In this document: positions 1,602-56,543 of the stretch, piece by piece
Numbering within the stretch: the first letter of the stretch is position 1
Layout: each line of letters starts with the position of its first letter
DNA from: a bacterium
GTDB taxonomy: Bacteria; Patescibacteriota; Minisyncoccia; Phycocordibacterales; Phycocordibacteraceae
Assembly (NCBI GenBank): GCA_021836725.1
Contig: JAKBHL010000011.1
Span: 18,210-82,209, forward strand
Reading direction: 5' to 3'
Length of the DNA: 64,000 nt
Notes under the pieces: model-generated
What the model was told of the DNA's origin: nothing
Seen by the model: only the letters and a program-made list of their open reading frames with translations
The model's database searches: none
Program-made: the position numbers and the translations under genes

Positions 1602-2075
1602 ATGCCACGAAGCGTTATTCTCGAATGGGAAGGTAGGGAGCACGATTATAATCCGAAAAGCGCCGATTGGTATTGGGTACTCGGCATCATCGCCACTGCT
1701 CTCGCCATTGCGTTGGTGCTCTTCAGTAATTATCTGCTTGCGGTCCTTGTCGTCGTTGCGGCAGCCGCGCTTGCGCTTCATGCGGCGAAGCATCCGTCCC
1801 TGCATCGTTTCCGTCTCGTCGAACAAGGGCTCTATGTCGGCGACGAACTGCACCCCTTTGGGCGGATGCTTTCTTTTTCCGTCCTTGAAGATATCGAAGG
1901 AGAGTTTCCGCCTATACTCTCCATAAAAAATGAGAGTTGGTTCTCGCCGCATTTGCTTGTACCGCTTGTGGGCGTTGATGCGGATGCGGTATACGCGTAT
2001 TTCCTCCAGCACGTTGACGAGAATGAACACCATCATACGTTTACCGACCTTGTGGCGGCATGGCTCGGATTTTGA
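1602..2075 (+). CDS. hypothetical membrane protein
   Basis: 157-aa ORF with one strong TM segment (WYWVLGIIATALAIALVLFSNYLLAVLVVVAAAALAL). Confidence 0.5.
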   Translation: MPRSVILEWEGREHDYNPKSADWYWVLGIIATALAIALVLFSNYLLAVLVVVAAAALALHAAKHPSLHRFRLVEQGLYVGDELHPFGRMLSFSVLEDIEGEFPPILSIKNESWFSPHLLVPLVGVDADAVYAYFLQHVDENEHHHTFTDLVAAWLGF

Positions 2076-2108
2076 AAAAACTCGCGTACGCGGTAGAGTC
2101 AACCGACC

Positions 2109-2180
2109 GCCCTCGTCGTTCAACGGATAGGACACCGGCTTGCGGAGCCGGCAATAGAGGTTCGATTCCTCTCGAGGGCA
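2109..2180 (+). tRNA. tRNA-Arg(GCG), no encoded CCA
   Basis: Acceptor gccctcg/cgagggc with discriminator a, anticodon stem ccggc/gccgg, loop ttgcgga, T-arm agaggttcgattcctct. Confidence 0.7.
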
Positions 2181-2203
2181 CTAAAATGGCGAAGCACACT
2201 TTT

Positions 2204-2367
2204 GTGCCCTCGAAGCAGGCCGTCTGCACGGCCTGCGAGAGGAATCGAAAGGCGGAGCGATGTTTGGCCAGCAGGCGAAACCGCGAGCCCTGCCCAGATA
2301 AACTTTTGCGGCGGCAAAAGTTTAATCGAGGGAGATACGGCGTATTCGCCGGTCCTCTCGAGGGCAC
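2204..2367. repeat. tRNA-Arg-derived structured element: an inverted 3'-end copy with a GC hairpin insert, plus a direct 3'-end fragment
   Basis: 2206-2249 is the reverse complement of a tRNA 3' half (T-loop, T-stem 3' side, acceptor 3' side) with the hairpin gcaggccgtctgcacggcctgc (2215-2236) inserted between T-stem and acceptor. 2353-2367 (tcctctcgagggcac) repeats the tRNA 3' end directly. Further hairpins lie inside (cttttgcggcggcaaaag). Confidence 0.5.
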
Positions 2368-2379
2368 CCTGTACTTCTC

Positions 2380-2721
2380 ATGATCGAGTACTTTTTCGCA
2401 TTTATCGCGGGCGGTGCGTTCACCATGATTGTAACCGCATTTCAGCTTTCCGGATTCCCGACGCTTTCGCGCATCGCGGCGCTCTTTCCGATTGTGACCT
2501 GGCTTTCGTACCTCTTCATTGGGCATATTGACGGCGCTCTGGCGGTTTCTCAGCATGCGCGTTTCGTCATATTTGGAACGATTGTCGCGTGGATACCGTA
2601 CATGTTCATCATTTATTATTTCGCGCCGCGCATCGGCGTCACGCGGGCGATAATGTTCGGCATCATTGTGTTTTTGCTGCTCGCATTCGCCTTTGCCGCG
2701 GTGTATAACAAGTGGGCTTAG
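2380..2721 (+). CDS. hypothetical 4-TM membrane protein
   Basis: 113-aa ORF, four hydrophobic helices, ATG at 2380 immediately after the structured element. Confidence 0.55.
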   Translation: MIEYFFAFIAGGAFTMIVTAFQLSGFPTLSRIAALFPIVTWLSYLFIGHIDGALAVSQHARFVIFGTIVAWIPYMFIIYYFAPRIGVTRAIMFGIIVFLLLAFAFAAVYNKWA

Positions 2722-16277: not shown

Positions 16278-17378
16278 TTATTGATTCATCGGTGAAATGA
16301 GATAGAGGAGGGAAGGGTCGCCGACTCCTTTTATAATGAGCGGGCGCCCGATACCGGCGGCGGTGAGCGAAAGGCTTTCTGTATTTGTGAGCGCAAGCAC
16401 GGCTGAAAGGTAACGGTGGTTAAAAGAGAGATCGAGAGCGCTTCCGGTTATTTGCGCAGAAAGCGTTTCTGCCGATTCTCCGATATCGGTATTGTGTGCA
16501 AAGAAAGAAAAGTGATTTTTTTTAGGATCGAAATTGATGCGTATTTTTTGGAAAGAATCTGAAAAAATAGCCGTTCTTTTTAGCGCGGTTTCAAAATCCC
16601 TCCTAAGAACCATAGCTTCGACGATGGATTCCTTCGGAATAATCTGCCGGTAATCGGGATAGGCGGCGTTTGTAAGCCGTGAGACAATCATCCCGGCCGC
16701 GCTGGTGAATGCGCATTGATGCTCATCAAACACAATGGTAACGTCGCCATCGGGCAGGGCTTGCGCGATTTCTACGGCATTTTTTGCCGGGATGAGGAGT
16801 TTTCCTTGTATCCCTTTATTGCCGAGTGTTATTTTCTTTTCAGCAAGCCGGAATGAGTCCGTTGCGACCGCTATGAGCATCCCTCCTTCCAGGGAAAGGT
16901 AAATGCTTGAGAGTTCAGGGCGTATGGTTGAGTTTGATGCGCAGGAGGCGATCGAGGTGAAAAGGGTGCGGAGGAGGGTTCCGGAAAGGATTATTTTATT
17001 TTTTTGATTTTCAGGAAATGGGATTGAGGGGAAATCGTCGTGGGGTACTGTTTTTACCGAGCTTTTGCCGGTACCGCTTGCAAGAGAGACGATGTCACCA
17101 GTATGTTCGAGTGTTATTTTCCCTTCCTGAGTGAGTGATCCTGCTATTTGTTGCAGAATAGCCGCCGGAATGGCGACAACCCCCTTGCTTTTACATTCTC
17201 CCTCGAGTGTGAGATCGATGCCGGTCTCGAGATTTGTCGCGCGCATTTTTATTCCATCATCTCCGGCGATGATAAGGATAGAAGAGAGGGCGGGGAGAGA
17301 AGCGCTTTTGCGTTCGGCGAATCGAGCGACTTTATACACTGCCTCAATAAATATCTTTTTTTCTATTGAAATATACAT
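16278..17378 (-). CDS. dnaN: DNA polymerase III beta sliding clamp
   Basis: 366 aa in three clamp-like domains, begins MYISIEKKIFIEAVYKVARFAERK, and sits just downstream of dnaA. Confidence 0.9.
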   Translation of the reverse strand: MYISIEKKIFIEAVYKVARFAERKSASLPALSSILIIAGDDGIKMRATNLETGIDLTLEGECKSKGVVAIPAAILQQIAGSLTQEGKITLEHTGDIVSLASGTGKSSVKTVPHDDFPSIPFPENQKNKIILSGTLLRTLFTSIASCASNSTIRPELSSIYLSLEGGMLIAVATDSFRLAEKKITLGNKGIQGKLLIPAKNAVEIAQALPDGDVTIVFDEHQCAFTSAAGMIVSRLTNAAYPDYRQIIPKESIVEAMVLRRDFETALKRTAIFSDSFQKIRINFDPKKNHFSFFAHNTDIGESAETLSAQITGSALDLSFNHRYLSAVLALTNTESLSLTAAGIGRPLIIKGVGDPSLLYLISPMNQ

Positions 17379-17489
17379 ACGACTTTTATTAAGGCTGTTG
17401 ATAAGGGGATAAACGAAAATCAGAACTCAATGACTCGATATTTTTACAACCACGGAACACATAATGTGTGGATAAAGGGAGTGAAAGGT
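17379..17489. promoter_or_regulatory. putative oriC core (dnaA-dnaN spacer with DnaA boxes)
   Basis: AT-rich spacer containing a perfect DnaA box TTATCCACA (minus strand, 17467-17475) and the near-consensus TTATCAACA (17396-17404). Confidence 0.55.
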
Positions 17490-18845
17490 TCATACAAGAA
17501 GCGTACGGATATTTTGAATCTCTTTTGCGAGCTCACTATCCACAACAACTTCACGTTTTATCTTCTCACAAGAGTGGATAACTGTCGTGTGGTCTCTACC
17601 ACCAAGTTTCACACCGATCGTTGGGTATGAAATACTAAAATCTTCACGAAGAATGTACATAATAACCTGACGCGGCCGCACCACCTCTCTCCGCCGCGTC
17701 TTTTCATAGATGCTTTCCTCATCAATGCCGTAAAATTCAGCAACCTTATCCACCACATTCTTTACGGATATATTCTTCTGCGGCCGCGTAAACGAACGCA
17801 GCGACTGACGCACCTCCGCTATATCAGGCGCAAAACCCTTTACTTGAGCATGGCAGATAATGCTGTTTACCATGCCTTCCAATTCCCGTATGGACCCGCT
17901 CATAGAGGTCGCCACATACTCAACAACCTCATCGGAAAGCATCACCCCATGAGAGGCGGCCTTTTTCCGCACTATGGCCATACGCGACTCCGGATCCGGT
18001 TCCCCGATATCGATGGCCATACCGCTCGCTAAACGGCCCTTCAGCCGCTCCGCGACGTCTGGAATGGCCGCCGGAGCCCGGTCTGAGGAGAAGATAATCT
18101 GCTTGTTTGTATCATGAAGCGCATTGAAAAGGTGGAAAAGCTCCTCCTGTGTCCGGTCTTTTTTTGAAAGAAACTGCACATCATCCATGATAAGTAGATC
18201 GTACTGACGATATTTATCCTTGAAGCGATTCGCGGTGCCTGCCTGAACGGAGTCGGTATAATCAACCGCGAATTTCTCCGAAGTAAGGTAGAACACCTTC
18301 CGACCCGGGTATTGTTTCTTAAAATGGTTCCCGATGGCCTGGATAAGATGTGTTTTTCCGCGCCCCGTGTCGCCATAAATGAAGAGTGGGTTATAAGAGA
18401 TGCCTGGGCGCTGCAAGGTCGCCTGCGCAGCGGCATACGCGAGATTATTGAAAGAACCAATAACAAACGTATCAAACGTGTAACGGGGGTTCAGGTTATC
18501 ACTCTTGTTTATGTAAAACTCATCGAGCGGAAGCTCAAGCGCTCCCCGCACGTTCTTGGCCTCCTTTGAGGGCAGTTTACGGCGTTCATCCTTCACAATG
18601 AGATATTCGATATTGCGGAATTCATAGGACACATCCCGCAGGATCTTCAAAAGAAGCGTATGGAACTTCTTCAGATACCAATCCTTGAAGAATTGGCTCG
18701 GCACGCCGATGTACACCACCCCATCCTCGCCTATTTTCACGATAAAACTGTTCCGGAACCACGTATTGAAATTCGCGGGCGATATCGAAAGCTCAACTTG
18801 CGTGAGCACGTATTCCCACAACTCCTTCGGGTTCCCTTTGTCCAT
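17490..18845 (-). CDS. dnaA: chromosomal replication initiator DnaA
   Basis: GDTGRGKTHLIQAIGN Walker A, IDDVQFL, C-terminal DNA-binding domain. Start at MDKGNPKELWEYV... (ATG complement of 18843-18845). Confidence 0.95.
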   Translation of the reverse strand: MDKGNPKELWEYVLTQVELSISPANFNTWFRNSFIVKIGEDGVVYIGVPSQFFKDWYLKKFHTLLLKILRDVSYEFRNIEYLIVKDERRKLPSKEAKNVRGALELPLDEFYINKSDNLNPRYTFDTFVIGSFNNLAYAAAQATLQRPGISYNPLFIYGDTGRGKTHLIQAIGNHFKKQYPGRKVFYLTSEKFAVDYTDSVQAGTANRFKDKYRQYDLLIMDDVQFLSKKDRTQEELFHLFNALHDTNKQIIFSSDRAPAAIPDVAERLKGRLASGMAIDIGEPDPESRMAIVRKKAASHGVMLSDEVVEYVATSMSGSIRELEGMVNSIICHAQVKGFAPDIAEVRQSLRSFTRPQKNISVKNVVDKVAEFYGIDEESIYEKTRRREVVRPRQVIMYILREDFSISYPTIGVKLGGRDHTTVIHSCEKIKREVVVDSELAKEIQNIRTLLV

Positions 18846-18937
18846 GATACCCAAGAGTATACGCTTTTGGAGGCGGAGCGGCACACTGGTGTTTCGGGGA
18901 GAACCTGTTACTATCATGTGCATAACCAAATTTCGAC

Positions 18938-49410: not shown

Positions 49411-49497
49411 CCTCTTTCTGCCGCATACCCCTCGCGTCACCCTGTAAATTATATGTTTAACATTTAATTACTCGCGTCGCCCTGGAGTTTTGAAATC
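49410..49497 (-). mobile_element. MITE-like repeat, partial copy D (one half only)
   Basis: cctctttctgccgcatacccctcgcg ... gagttttgaaatcg matches the right half and terminal inverted repeat of copies B/C. Confidence 0.5.
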
Positions 49498-49564
49498 GAA
49501 GCTTACAGCTTCAGTACACCTTGTGGATATTTTGCTTCAGGAAATCGCAAAATATGCTCACAAG

Positions 49565-49797
49565 GTTTTCGATTCTCCTACGCAGGCCTCCCAGGCCTGC
49601 TATCCCGCACAATTTCTCACCAGGTTCTAAATTGTGCGGGATAGGAGAACCGTGATTACACTTTCGGTCACGCATAATTTCTTGCTAGAAATTTGCGCGA
49701 CCCCGCCTCGCGCCGTCGCGCTCCGGCCTTCGATTCTCCGTGCAGGACGCGGAGCGTCCTGCACAATCCCGCACCTCCTCGCTAGAGGGCTCGTCGG
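49565..49797. repeat. tRNA-Gly 3'-end-derived inverted repeats with GC-hairpin inserts
   Basis: Plus-sense fragments at 49568-49614 and 49729-49777 have the form ttcgattctcc[hairpin]atcccgcac. The hairpins are gcaggcctcccaggcctgc and gtgcaggacgcggagcgtcctgcac. Each faces a minus-sense tRNA 3' end (49633-49649; the real tRNA at 49798) across a ~20-nt spacer. Confidence 0.6.
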
Positions 49798-49868
49798 TGC
49801 GGGATAGGAGAATCGAACTCCTGCTCTCAGTTTGGAAAACTGACGTTCTACCATTAAACTAATCCCGC
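49798..49868 (-). tRNA. tRNA-Gly(TCC), no encoded CCA
   Basis: Reverse complement gcgggat...tcagt-tttccaa-actga...aggagttcgattctcct-atcccgc-a. Confidence 0.85.
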
Positions 49869-52013: not shown

Positions 52014-52745
52014 TTATATACTCTCATAATATCCTTCGTTCATCAATTCCCCCGGGAATATCTTTAGCCACTCGAGCACTTTCTCTTTAAAATACGTACT
52101 GGAAACCGCGACGAGGCATACTCCCCACAGTAGCCGTTTAGTCTTATGCCGGCCGATGATTTGCGTGCATTTTGTAAAGTTCGATACCGGTAATCCTGAT
52201 GCTTCCGCCCAATACCGTACACACCTCTCTTTATTCAAATCAGGATACACGAGTATGTGTGCCCTGATTCTATCAATTGGAATTCGGCAGGCATGAGTTA
52301 AGAAGAAAACATATAATTTAATGAGTTGTGGATCAGTATTGGCGAGTCTTACACCGTTTCGTACTTGGCTCTTGTCGCCCTCTCCCCAATAGAGCATGAG
52401 GCCGGCGATAAAAAGAGGGTTGTGTTTCAGTTCTAGAAAGTCGTTTCTGGCCTCTTCTCGTGCCTCTTCATACGCGCGTTTGAGATGTGTTCCCCGTATT
52501 TTGTCCAGTTCAATTAATCGGACGATGTGTTGCTTTTGTACTGCGGCCGCTAATTTTTTGGCCATAGCATTTGACCAATCGATTTTACTGAACCAATCCG
52601 ACAAAGTTGCTTTCGGAATTTTCAGTGCGGCGTGTATCTCATTGTAGCTCTTTCCATTCCTACGCATATCGAAAGCAATTTCCTTGTCTTTTCGCATACA
52701 GTAATTATACCCCAATGAGGGTTCATTTATGGATAGCACACTCAA
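52014..52745 (-). CDS. free-standing homing-endonuclease-like protein (N-terminal HTH; LAGLIDADG-like motif); low GC
   Basis: 243-aa ORF. The N-terminus MRKDKEIAFDMRRNGKSYNEIHAALKIPKATLSDW is HTH-like, and ...NPLFIAGLMLYWGEGDKSQ... resembles a LAGLIDADG box. GC is about 44%. It is wedged between tRNA-Gly(GCC) and tRNA-Arg(TCG). Confidence 0.5.
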   Translation of the reverse strand: MSVLSINEPSLGYNYCMRKDKEIAFDMRRNGKSYNEIHAALKIPKATLSDWFSKIDWSNAMAKKLAAAVQKQHIVRLIELDKIRGTHLKRAYEEAREEARNDFLELKHNPLFIAGLMLYWGEGDKSQVRNGVRLANTDPQLIKLYVFFLTHACRIPIDRIRAHILVYPDLNKERCVRYWAEASGLPVSNFTKCTQIIGRHKTKRLLWGVCLVAVSSTYFKEKVLEWLKIFPGELMNEGYYESI

Positions 52746-52893: not shown

Positions 52894-54363
52894 TTGAGGA
52901 TGCATTATCGCGTTCCGGAGGAGGTCTCAAGAGTCGGGAAAGACCTGCGGGGCGCAGGCTATGAAGCATATCTTGTCGGCGGGTGTGTCCGCGACCTGCT
53001 CATCGGCCGAGAACCGAAGGATTGGGACATCACCACAAACGCGACACCGGAACAGATTCAGGGTGTATTTCCTGACTCTTTTTATGAAAATGACTACGGC
53101 ACCGTCGGTGTAAAAACAGGCAGCGGAGATGAACGGACGGCCATAATCGAGGTAACGCCTTACCGTACCGAATCCGCATATTCGGATAGACGCCGACCGG
53201 ACAAAGTTGAATTCGGCACTTCCCTTCTTGAAGACCTCGCCCGTCGCGACTTCACCATCAATGCCATCGCACTCGATGATTCTAAAGGACATCTAGTCGA
53301 TCCTTACGACGGTCAAAAGGACATAAAGGACATGATAGTGCGGACTGTCGGCGACCCATCCGAGCGTTTTAACGAAGATGCATTGCGTATGCTTCGCGCG
53401 GTTCGTTTTGTCGCCGAACTTGGGTTCGGGATAGATGGCAACACCGCTGCTGCAATAAGCGAAAATAGCAAGCATTTAAGTGGCGTTTCACGTGAAAGGG
53501 TTCGAGATGAACTCGTTAGAATACTCAATTCGAACCAACCGATGAATGCGCTCGTTCTCGCACAGCAACTCGGTATTCTTGTGTTTATAGCGCCGGATCT
53601 TACGCGCGGTATCGGTGTTGAACAGAACCAGGCGCACAGTTATGACGTTTTTGGGCACCTTATGCGAACCATGCAACACGCCGCAGACAAAAATTGGAAC
53701 TTCGATATACGTCTTGCCGGGCTTTTCCATGATGTCTCAAAACCGGAAACGCGTCGATGGTCTGATGAAAAGAAAGATTGGACATTCCATGGACATGAGG
53801 TTGTTGGTTCACGTGTAACAAAGAAAATACTCGAGGATTTGCACTTTTCACGCGAAACAACTGAAAAAGTCGTAAAATTGGTGCGCTGGCACATGTTTTT
53901 CTCAGATCCAGAGCAAATAACGCTTTCTGCGGTTCGAAGGATGATAAAGAATGTCGGAGAAGAGAATATATGGGATTTGCTAAATCTGCGCATCTGCGAC
54001 CGTATCGGTACGGGAAGACCGAAAGAACAACCGTTCCGATTCAGAAAATATAAAGCAATGGTCGAACAAGCTCTCCGTGACCCTATTTCAGTATCTATGC
54101 TCAAAACGGATGGGAAGCGCATAATGGACTTATTCAAAGAGAAACCAGGGCCAAAAATAGGTTACACGCTCCACGCTCTCCTCGAGGAAGTATTGGATGA
54201 TCCGGATAGGAATACCGAAGAATATATCGATAAACGCACGAAGGAGCTTCTCTCTATGCCTGAGGACGCTCTCAAGAAGCTTGGGGAAGCGGGTAAAAAA
54301 CGTCGTGAAGCGGCAGAAGACGAGGAAATAAAGCAAATAATGGAGAAACACCACGTTTGTTAA
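52894..54363 (+). CDS. cca: CCA-adding tRNA nucleotidyltransferase with HD domain
   Basis: GGCVRDLLIGREPKDWDI head motif, ...RDFTINAIA..., and a C-terminal HD region (HDVSKPE). GC is about 47%. It is consistent with tRNA genes lacking an encoded CCA. Confidence 0.85.
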   Translation: MRMHYRVPEEVSRVGKDLRGAGYEAYLVGGCVRDLLIGREPKDWDITTNATPEQIQGVFPDSFYENDYGTVGVKTGSGDERTAIIEVTPYRTESAYSDRRRPDKVEFGTSLLEDLARRDFTINAIALDDSKGHLVDPYDGQKDIKDMIVRTVGDPSERFNEDALRMLRAVRFVAELGFGIDGNTAAAISENSKHLSGVSRERVRDELVRILNSNQPMNALVLAQQLGILVFIAPDLTRGIGVEQNQAHSYDVFGHLMRTMQHAADKNWNFDIRLAGLFHDVSKPETRRWSDEKKDWTFHGHEVVGSRVTKKILEDLHFSRETTEKVVKLVRWHMFFSDPEQITLSAVRRMIKNVGEENIWDLLNLRICDRIGTGRPKEQPFRFRKYKAMVEQALRDPISVSMLKTDGKRIMDLFKEKPGPKIGYTLHALLEEVLDDPDRNTEEYIDKRTKELLSMPEDALKKLGEAGKKRREAAEDEEIKQIMEKHHVC

Positions 54364-55625: not shown

Positions 55626-56543
55626 CTACGCGCGATTTTTACCGTGATATTTCTTATGGATTTCGCGCAGATGCGTATCGGTGACATGAGTGTATATCTG
55701 GGTGGTATTGATCGAGGCGTGCCCGAGAAGCTGCTGGACAGAACGGATATCGGCGCCGTTGCTCAAAAGGTCGGTTGCAAAAGAATGGCGCAATACATGG
55801 GGCGTGACTTTTTTCGTGATCCCCGCTTTTGCCGCAGCGCGTTTGATGATACGTTCGATGGAACGAGGCGTAAGACGCGAAGGAATCTGGGTACCGGTTG
55901 GCATATTCACGAAGAGCGCGTCCGCCATATCCTTGCGCGCTTCGAGATAGGCGGCAATGGCGCTTCGAGCGGTATCGGAAAGGAAAACAACGCGCACTTT
56001 CTCGCCTTTGCCGCGTACCGAGAAGGAATCTCGCGTAAGATCAAGATCATTATCAAGCGCACAAAGTTCGGAAACGCGCAGCCCGGTTGAGAAAAGCGTC
56101 TCAAGTATCGCGGTATCGCGCAGATCCCTTTCCCCGACTCCCCGCGCGGATTTCAAGAGACGCTCAAGCTCAACGGGCGTTATGAGGTCGAGTTCACGCT
56201 CGGGGAGTTTTGCAAGCTCGATGCGTTCAGGAGAAATGCACTCGATCTCGCGCTTGCGCAAGAATTTTAGAAACGCACGAAGCGCGATCATGTAGTAATT
56301 CTGCGTTCGGCGCTTCATGCCGCCGCCGCCGGCACCCGGTTGGCGGTTCAGCCATTGGCGGAACTCGCGTATGTTCTGCTCGGTGATATCGGTGACTCTC
56401 GCAACGCCGGTCTGCGCGAAATAACGCGTCAGATAATGATCATAATTCTCGATGGTTTTCACCGCGCGCCCCCGCTCAATCTCGATGTATTCGAGAAATT
56501 GCCGTTTCGCAGCCTCAGCTTCCATCGAAACAGTATAACGCAC
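55626..56543 (-). CDS. xerC: tyrosine site-specific recombinase (XerC/XerD-like)
   Basis: N-terminal SAM-like domain (...YLTRYF...), catalytic RHxxR...Y (VTPHVLRHSFATDLL...IYTHV). The start may be at the downstream Met (56525). Confidence 0.85.
   Translation of the reverse strand: MRYTVSMEAEAAKRQFLEYIEIERGRAVKTIENYDHYLTRYFAQTGVARVTDITEQNIREFRQWLNRQPGAGGGGMKRRTQNYYMIALRAFLKFLRKREIECISPERIELAKLPERELDLITPVELERLLKSARGVGERDLRDTAILETLFSTGLRVSELCALDNDLDLTRDSFSVRGKGEKVRVVFLSDTARSAIAAYLEARKDMADALFVNMPTGTQIPSRLTPRSIERIIKRAAAKAGITKKVTPHVLRHSFATDLLSNGADIRSVQQLLGHASINTTQIYTHVTDTHLREIHKKYHGKNRA

Follow-up and report, generated by a model that had tools for sequence, protein, structure and literature searches.

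Small non-coding elements at the 3' ends of tRNA and tmRNA genes in Parcubacteria: copies of the adjoining gene end around a conserved, strand-specific folded core

The window studied here, a stretch of 64,000 nucleotides, is a chromosomal segment from a Kaiserbacteria-like member of the Parcubacteria. It carries dnaA-dnaN, polA and ruvA/B as well as genes for RNase Y, a CCA-adding enzyme and an Xer-like recombinase, and its Mur ligase has a best match of 74% among GTDB species genomes. The dnaN and dnaA genes lie side by side (16278-18929), which makes a replication origin near 19 kb probable. There are eight tRNA genes in all, of which only tRNA-Ser(TGA) (572-659) encodes its CCA; the other seven do not, and the gene for the CCA-adding enzyme (52894-54363) adjoins tRNA-Arg(TCG). 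Two of the eight, tRNA-Arg(GCG) and tRNA-Gly(TCC), are followed by inverted and direct copies of their own 3' ends, arranged around a folded core (Table 1).

Table 1. Features of the element-bearing tRNA-Arg(GCG) and tRNA-Gly(TCC) loci, in window coordinates.
Feature	Position	Strand	Remarks
Promoter-like site, TTGAAA-16-TAGAGT	2072-2099	+	about 10 nt 5' of tRNA-Arg(GCG)
tRNA-Arg(GCG)	2109-2181	+	CCA not encoded
Entire insertion, 186 nt	2182-2367	+	spacer, inverted arm, core and direct copy
Spacer, 22 nt	2182-2203	+	centre of the palindrome made by tRNA-Arg end and inverted arm
Mini-hairpin GCGAAGC	2189-2195	+	in the spacer, at the palindrome tip
Inverted arm, part 1, GTGCCCTCGA	2204-2213	+	reverse complement of acceptor 3' strand, discriminator and following C
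GC hairpin module, GCAGGCCG-tctgca-CGGCCTGC	2215-2236	+	perfect, 8 bp, 22 nt; at the acceptor/T-stem junction of the inverted arm
Inverted arm, part 2, GAGAGGAATCGAA	2237-2249	+	reverse complement of T-loop and T-stem 3' strand
Type-A core, divergent subfamily, about 100 nt	2250-2352	+	model R1 match and fold
P2 of core	2251-2289	+	GGA/GA internal loop; fold
P3 of core	2293-2332	+	bulged A; fold
Small hairpin of core	2339-2350	+	fold
Direct copy of tRNA-Arg 3' end, TCCTCTCGAGGGCAC	2353-2367	+	exact, 15 nt; ends 12 nt 5' of the GlpM-like start codon
GlpM-like membrane protein gene	2380-2721		directly after the tRNA-Arg element
tRNA-Gly(TCC)	49796-49868	-	
tRNA-Gly unit 1, left side	49729-49795	-	spacer, inverted acceptor part, GC hairpin, inverted T part
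Unit 1 spacer, 20 nt	49776-49795	-	
Unit 1 inverted acceptor part	49766-49775	-	
Unit 1 GC hairpin, GTGCAGGACGC...GCGTCCTGCAC	49740-49764	-	
Unit 1 inverted T part	49729-49739	-	
Unit 1 core, canonical type A	49650-49728	-	CGGAGC ... GAGGCGGGGUCGCG ... GUGACC; model R1 and fold
Unit 1 direct copy, CGgTTCTCCTATCCCGCAC, 16 nt	49634-49652	-	position 56 to 3' end
tRNA-Gly unit 2, left side	49568-49633	-	spacer, inverted acceptor part, GC hairpin, inverted T part
Unit 2 spacer	49611-49633	-	
Unit 2 inverted acceptor part	49600-49610	-	
Unit 2 GC hairpin, GCAGGCC...GGCCTGC	49582-49600	-	
Unit 2 inverted T part	49568-49580	-	
Unit 2 core, type B	49501-49567	-	ACCUUGUGAG..hairpin..CCACAAGGUGUACUG-GAAGC-UGUAA-GCUUC
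Unit 2 closing direct copy, TTCGATTTCAAAACTCC	49484-49500	-	decayed

At tRNA-Arg(GCG), the copied segment comprises the last 22 nt of the gene (2160-2181), from the T-loop through the 3' end. The original prediction had described an inverted copy of T-loop, T-stem and acceptor, split by a 22-nt perfect hairpin, and a third, direct copy about 100 nt further on; both are present, and the spacer, which it gave as 24 nt, measures 22 nt. Pairing between the gene end and its inverted copy extends into the trailer (AAAA with TTTT). As DNA, GCGAAGC is an unusually stable mini-hairpin; the motif also occurs in the spacers of related loci L064, L059 and L039, often at the palindrome tip, and it may hint at a single-stranded DNA form of the element. 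The covariance model R1 described below matches the core at 2242-2338 (30.6 bits, E about 1e-5), with a normal P2 and a variant base of P3 that is common to L059. No ORF was found within the 186-nt insertion, and a short core ORF (ATG...TAA, 13 codons in the window) was rejected as a gene since its length and frame are not kept in relatives. The element is probably co-transcribed with tRNA-Arg, because a promoter-like site precedes the tRNA and no terminator-like site was seen between the two in the window sequence. At tRNA-Arg(CCG), by contrast, the tRNA is followed by a strong palindromic terminator (2799-2846) with an A-tract and a T-tract, which does not reach into the tRNA and is a useful contrast to the element-bearing loci.

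The architecture had been predicted to recur at tRNA-Gly(TCC), and it does so twice in a row, as two units with two different core types (A, then B). Model R1 matches the core of unit 1 at 49659-49736 with 67.4 bits; it finds nothing else in the window, and none of the remaining six tRNAs has such an arrangement. The only tyrosine recombinase in the window is encoded by an xerC-like gene (55626-56543), 6 kb from the tRNA-Gly locus. The original prediction had named it in connection with possible recombinase recognition sites; its product looks like an ordinary chromosomal Xer recombinase.

Several other observations concern tRNA flanks more generally. A 10-nt direct copy of the tRNA-Ser 3' end, ACCATCCGCC, lies 336 nt downstream (996-1005) inside an opposite-strand ORF and may be due to chance. 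The gap between tRNA-Arg(TCG) and tRNA-Gly(GCC) is filled by an ORF (52014-52745, minus strand) of 227-243 aa, which leaves about 21 nt to the first tRNA at its start and 6 nt to the second at its end; Pfam gives only an N-terminal HTH, and a candidate LAGLIDADG-like motif, FIAGLMLYWGEGDK, was seen by eye. At five related loci (L013, L014, L015, L016, L020), an ORF of 275-277 aa starts 0-3 nt past the end of tRNA-Lys(TTT) and combines an N-terminal HTH with a LAGLIDADG_3 domain (E 6e-11). From this domain content its product looks like a free-standing homing endonuclease, which suggests a second kind of selfish insert at tRNA 3' ends in this lineage.

The occurrence of the inverted arms was surveyed in 80 loci of related genomes, in which 232 tRNAs were called and each flank was searched for exact inverted copies, 9 nt or longer, of sequence from the last 24 nt of the same tRNA, at most 130 nt downstream. 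Such a copy followed 31 of the 232 tRNAs, compared with none upstream, none in shuffled flanks and one when the tRNA 5' half served as query. These controls exclude chance, in agreement with the original prediction, which had considered it unlikely on the strength of two loci; the scan of relatives that it called for turned up many loci, so the pattern is not confined to those two. The full two-block inverted copy stands at 16 tRNAs, namely Arg (four anticodons), Gly, Ser, Lys, Val and Pro, and in all 16 of these extended copies the arms match the sequence of their own tRNA. A hairpin of 22-28 nt occupies the same acceptor/T-stem junction in 11 of the 16. Hairpin modules fold in 19 of 19 cases, one of them behind tmRNA; their stem sequences differ, and their common flanks read A-[G(C/A)A ... 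U(G/U)C]-G(U). Compared with the direct copy, the inverted arm extends two bases further into the T-loop (T54, T55), as well as into the trailer, and hence must have had the tRNA itself as its template, not the direct copy. TGG occurs within the arm only where CCA is encoded (L080, L045, L089) and is absent from the window arm. Promoter-like hexamers just 5' of the arm were inconsistent among copies.

The original prediction saw the main conserved feature in the hairpin and overlooked the core between the repeats, which is the unit actually conserved. In type-A cores, the commonest kind, P2 has the form GNC-GGA-GC..hairpin..GC-GA-GNC with a 3x2 internal loop, and P3 the form CGGGGUCGCG..long hairpin with a bulged A..UGUGAC. 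Sixteen such cores were aligned with MAFFT, and the alignment, from which model R1 was built, contains 19 consensus pairs, with compensatory changes in 12 of them. Paired cells amounted to 94.7% in the 16 cores, compared with 76.5% in shuffles and 32-46% with slid partners, and 58 double changes were observed against 16.8 expected; compensatory changes thus exceed the controls, as for a structured RNA under selection. One G.U pair is invariant in all 16 cores, and overall there are 22 G.U against 2 A.C, which identifies the folding strand as the tRNA strand, either as RNA or as single-stranded DNA. Selection maintains the fold of this one particular strand of the core, which is about 90% conserved between genomes whose proteins are only about 60% identical.

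The family has at least three core types. Type B, with the form ...CAAGGUGUACUG-stem-UGUAA-stem, is also found behind all five sampled tRNAs in L064, a third type occurs in L047, L052 and L079, and the same tRNA locus carries type A, B or C in different lineages. A scan of three element regions against Rfam 15, with E up to 10, returned tRNA matches only. Two candidate assignments were discarded: a K-turn in the P2 internal loop, where the bulge is 1 nt and not 3 nt; and a group I or group II intron, for which the element is too small and has no Rfam match, the paper on tRNA introns of Patescibacteria moreover dealing with position 35/36.

Model R1 detects about 120 copies in Parcubacteria genomes and metagenomes, almost every one just 3' of a same-strand tRNA or tmRNA. 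In 81 sources (the window and 80 genome loci) it finds 40 copies, 36 of which begin 36-77 nt past a same-strand tRNA. Two of the other four are tandem copies; the remaining matches are both weak: that in L063 comes after a tRNA-like 3' end that has decayed, and that in L041 scores about 19 bits and lies at a large distance from all tRNAs. The tRNA of two further copies is cut off by the contig end. As an independent sample, metagenome contigs were scanned for the core pattern. Of the 82 matches obtained, spread over 80 loci, 50 have a tRNA no more than 100 nt away (30 anticodons in all), 10 occur in tandem and seven are at contig ends; one comes after a tmRNA and one after an intron-containing tRNA. 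About eight of the 82 have no recognisable upstream tRNA, two of them behind a good promoter-like site. The orphan arrays L137 (1-145) and L168 (about 2120-2330) consist of a sigma-70-like promoter (TTGGAA-17-TACAAT), a terminator-like hairpin and then the element.

The family uses tmRNA as well. In L101 (3107-3681, minus strand), a terminator hairpin comes after a tmRNA gene, then the 3' end of the tmRNA in inverted form, interrupted by a hairpin, and finally a type-A core, so that the full arm-plus-hairpin layout is present. Scanning of viral contigs yielded 11 pattern matches, with one clear member (L090, 51 bits) and one weak match (L100); phage contigs are essentially free of the element, and the family is not phage-borne. 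The element load varies from genome to genome, from 5/5 sampled tRNAs in L064, 4/5 in L025 and 3/3 in L083, through 2/8 in the window, to 0/5-0/9 at many loci.

Evidence for insertion comes from the GlpM-like gene, homologues of which were fetched with their flanks. In six related lineages, tRNA-Arg(GCG) is followed by the GlpM-like gene after only 6-15 nt (GlpM-like protein identity 90% in L221, 81% in L222/223, 77% in L227-229, 79% in L230/231, 74% in L232 and 73% in L022), and the tRNA end occupies there the position that the direct copy has in the window. The L221 flank after the tRNA (cccgtacttccaATG) matches the window flank after the direct copy (cctgtacttctcATG); when lined up, GAGGGCAC is followed by cccgtacttccaATGATCGAGTAC in L221 and by cctgtacttctcATGATCGAGTAC in the window. 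The 186 nt thus represent an insertion, acquired since the lineage of the window parted from that of L221, and along with it the tRNA end was duplicated over 15 nt. As a side remark, tRNA-Arg(GCG) of L221 reads ...TTCGATTACTCT... at about 190-210, a change that would disrupt the conserved G53-C61 pair but may stem from a sequencing error, the contig being short and of low coverage. Contigs of the window's own species (L001-L007, seven samples) all carry the element and are identical but for a single SNP in the hairpin loop.

The junctions follow a rule. Directly after the GUGAC that ends the core, the direct copy begins at tRNA position 56 in 40 of the 54 cases that could be scored; in a minority class it begins at the third base from the tRNA end. 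It usually stops 0-3 nt past the tRNA end; it either runs from position 56 to the end (about 19-22 nt) or comprises the last 3 nt and trailer, with varying lengths. Some units form tandem arrays: L180 has three identical 134-nt units and a truncated fourth, L067 has four units of alternating type, and L036, L026 and L080 have two or three each. Only fragments were seen in L014, L031 and L018.

Cores and arms behave as separate modules. The P2 of the window tRNA-Arg element is 96% identical over 49 nt to that of an element behind tRNA-Pro(GGG) in L183, in which both arms match tRNA-Pro and P3 is canonical. With near-identical P2 and locally fitted arms, cores must have been exchanged or moved on a short time scale. 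On the other hand, elements at tRNA-Lys loci (L012, L045, L047, L080, L085) are strongly conserved in sequence and appear to be vertically inherited over long distances, which would fit a host function too. A search for large elements, with genes enclosed between the tRNA and a remote copy of its end, gave none. Nor was any copy seen to be linked to a recombinase, a transposase or a reverse transcriptase, and we found neither a coding version of full length nor, in 200 loci, a related autonomous element with a transposase.

The family is one of small (about 100-190 nt), non-coding elements in the tRNA and tmRNA 3' ends of Parcubacteria, each unit consisting of a palindromic spacer, a left inverted arm (T-loop into trailer, often split by the hairpin module at the acceptor/T-stem junction), a folded core and a direct copy from position 56. 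Given that the block was inserted, that its junctions follow a rule, that one strand specifically folds and that the units are modular, we consider a non-autonomous integrative element with the tRNA T-loop as its target, and with its single-stranded fold under selection, to be moderately likely. Among the ideas offered by the original prediction, a small element that targets tRNA 3' ends is the one supported, by insertion polymorphism, tandem arrays, decayed copies and a family with a conserved core.

As for the mechanism, we infer the recombination chemistry, the free form and the enzyme. Integration would occur by recombination at a fixed point of the universally conserved T-loop; it would rebuild the tRNA and leave the displaced 3' segment (position 56 to the end) downstream, by analogy with the segment that tRNA-targeting integrative elements leave. 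In the free form, the left arm could pair with the copy of the tRNA end and so close the core, giving a tRNA-like three-way junction of an acceptor-like helix, a hairpin arm and a T-stem-like helix. The folded single strand would then present a duplex copy of the target to an enzyme acting in trans.

In comparison with known systems, there is a close resemblance to integrase-type tRNA elements, namely tyrosine-integrase islands and prophages with their crossover in the T-loop, and to their integrase-less derivatives, which likewise rebuild the tRNA and leave a direct repeat from T-loop to 3' end; integrase-type elements also share the fixed orientation, the tandem arrays and the use of tmRNA as a target. 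A direct repeat of the tRNA flanks the present elements as well (15 nt in the window, and from position 56 in the 40 of 54 family members noted above). However, they are only 100-190 nt long, have no genes, carry an inverted copy of the target in addition, use any tRNA with matched arms and have a folded core as their cargo. No integrase gene lies inside the 186-nt insertion, and instead of one lineage per tRNA species we find 30 anticodons, with the same P2 at Arg and Pro. An IS91-like GTTC target was also considered and rejected, since the junction at 55/56 is one base off and no transposase is present.

Like MITEs and palindromic repeats (REP/BIME, Correia and Rickettsia palindromic elements), the elements are small, non-coding, multi-copy and unevenly distributed among genomes, with complementary ends that allow the whole unit to fold. 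They differ in their location at tRNA or tmRNA 3' ends and, from MITEs, in that their terminal repeats are local copies of the target that change at every locus, not a fixed transposase site; no terminal inverted repeats common to all copies were found. Integron attC sites and the CTX phage attP site share a variable sequence with a conserved one-strand fold, a bulged base and a wobble pair; in the present family, too, folding of that strand would offer a duplex resembling the target. The target of the present family is, in contrast, a tRNA gene, and single-strand recombination would be its counterpart only by inference. The attC core boxes RYYYAAC and GTTRRRY are absent from the core alignment, and the window has no integron integrase.

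A casposon beside tRNA-Pro has been described whose duplication of about 15 bp overlaps the tRNA 3' end, with the T-loop region as part of the target (PMC5137440). The likeness lies in this duplication with the T-loop in the target; casposons, however, are large, encode Cas1 and have terminal repeats of their own, whereas the duplication here runs from position 56 to the 3' end. The nearest precedents are therefore tRNA-targeting integrative elements and this casposon target. Viral tRNA-like ends, mascRNA and tRNA punctuation would resemble the modelled fold in their acceptor/T-stem stack, single side arm and discriminator; unlike these tRNA-like structures, the element has a core of about 100 nt in place of the T-loop and copies the neighbouring tRNA exactly. 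The TIGR-Tas system we take to be unrelated. Full-text literature searches found no description of the element, and the family is apparently undescribed and absent from Rfam; for the latter reason, the tRNA flanks in these genomes are not annotated for it.

Several points count against the integrative reading. One is that no copy was found linked to an enzyme gene; others are the apparent vertical inheritance at tRNA-Lys loci and the copies without a recognisable tRNA, about eight in the metagenome sample. A further one is the same core with arms for different tRNAs: the target copy in a classical integrative element is fixed and would not allow this, and no step proposed above accounts for the change of arms. 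Another reading, to which we give a minor share of our belief, is a mobile unit programmed by base pairing, with the left arm as a guide to the 3' segment of the target tRNA gene. A host enzyme or some other enzyme would recognise only the conserved fold (hairpin arm, P2 and P3) and cut a fixed point in the T-loop, and the arms would be rewritten from the new target at each move. If true, a protein-free element of about 150 nt could colonise every tRNA and tmRNA of a genome, by a logic akin to bridge-RNA or intron guide pairing but self-updating. We see a real possibility that a new principle of targeting lies behind the self-matching arms.

Another alternative, which we regard as rather unlikely, is a host cis-acting RNA module. 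Transcribed with the tRNA, arm and direct copy would form an acceptor/T-stem mimic that is cut or recognised by RNase P, RNase Z or the CCA-adding enzyme, so as to separate the tRNA from downstream RNA and free a stable RNA whose core might, for example, bind a protein. Such a role would agree with a fold specific to the tRNA strand (the G.U bias), with a core far better conserved than the proteins, and with genomes in which every sampled tRNA carries an element. In the window, tRNA-Arg, the element, the gene and a second tRNA look like one operon, with no terminator after tRNA-Arg, and arm, hairpin and direct copy reproduce the topology of a tRNA in which one hairpin replaces the D and anticodon arms. 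However, close relatives have the same tRNA without the element, and six of the eight window tRNAs carry none, so it is not needed for tRNA maturation. In many relatives the spacer is a strong terminator-like hairpin that separates element and tRNA, and minimal forms of the family, with a closing helix of only 3-5 bp, make no tRNA mimic. A mimic would also have no need of the neighbouring tRNA's sequence, and the decayed copies and arrays look selfish. The original prediction had similarly proposed a tRNA-linked terminator or processing signal, which fails to explain the pattern of presence and absence; a secondary RNA role, such as processing at the predicted tRNA-like helix, is possible and would be compatible with our preferred integrative reading.

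Scars of repeated integration and excision, also among the earlier proposals, would be leftover attachment sites of integrase islands or prophages later deleted from tRNA genes. The block from T-loop to 3' end is the classic identity block of tRNA-targeting integrases; the direct repeat spans it, and tandem repeats of the block occur. Against this stand a covarying core between the repeats that is common to many tRNAs and genomes, the lack of any integrase gene or of a distant tRNA-end repeat enclosing genes, and the use of 30 different tRNAs, not expected of one integrase family. Scars are thus largely refuted already, and we think them very improbable. Least credible of all is a retroelement primer-binding site or T-box-like sensor that pairs with the 3' end of a mature tRNA: over 23 nt the arm can pair with a specific tRNA 3' end, but this complementarity is to the gene and runs into the 3' trailer, not to a mature tRNA with CCA, which refutes it, and there is neither an adjacent reverse transcriptase ORF nor a T-box or other Rfam match.

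The genomes of Patescibacteria are among the smallest and most streamlined of bacteria, yet some of them carry at least one unit at every tRNA sampled. If these units are mobile, they reach any tRNA with exactly matching arms and without a gene of their own; to our knowledge, no described bacterial repeat or integrative element does so, and the mechanism might be reusable for targeted insertion. If they are instead a host RNA, they would constitute a new and abundant class of structured RNA tied to the tRNA genes of a major uncultured lineage.
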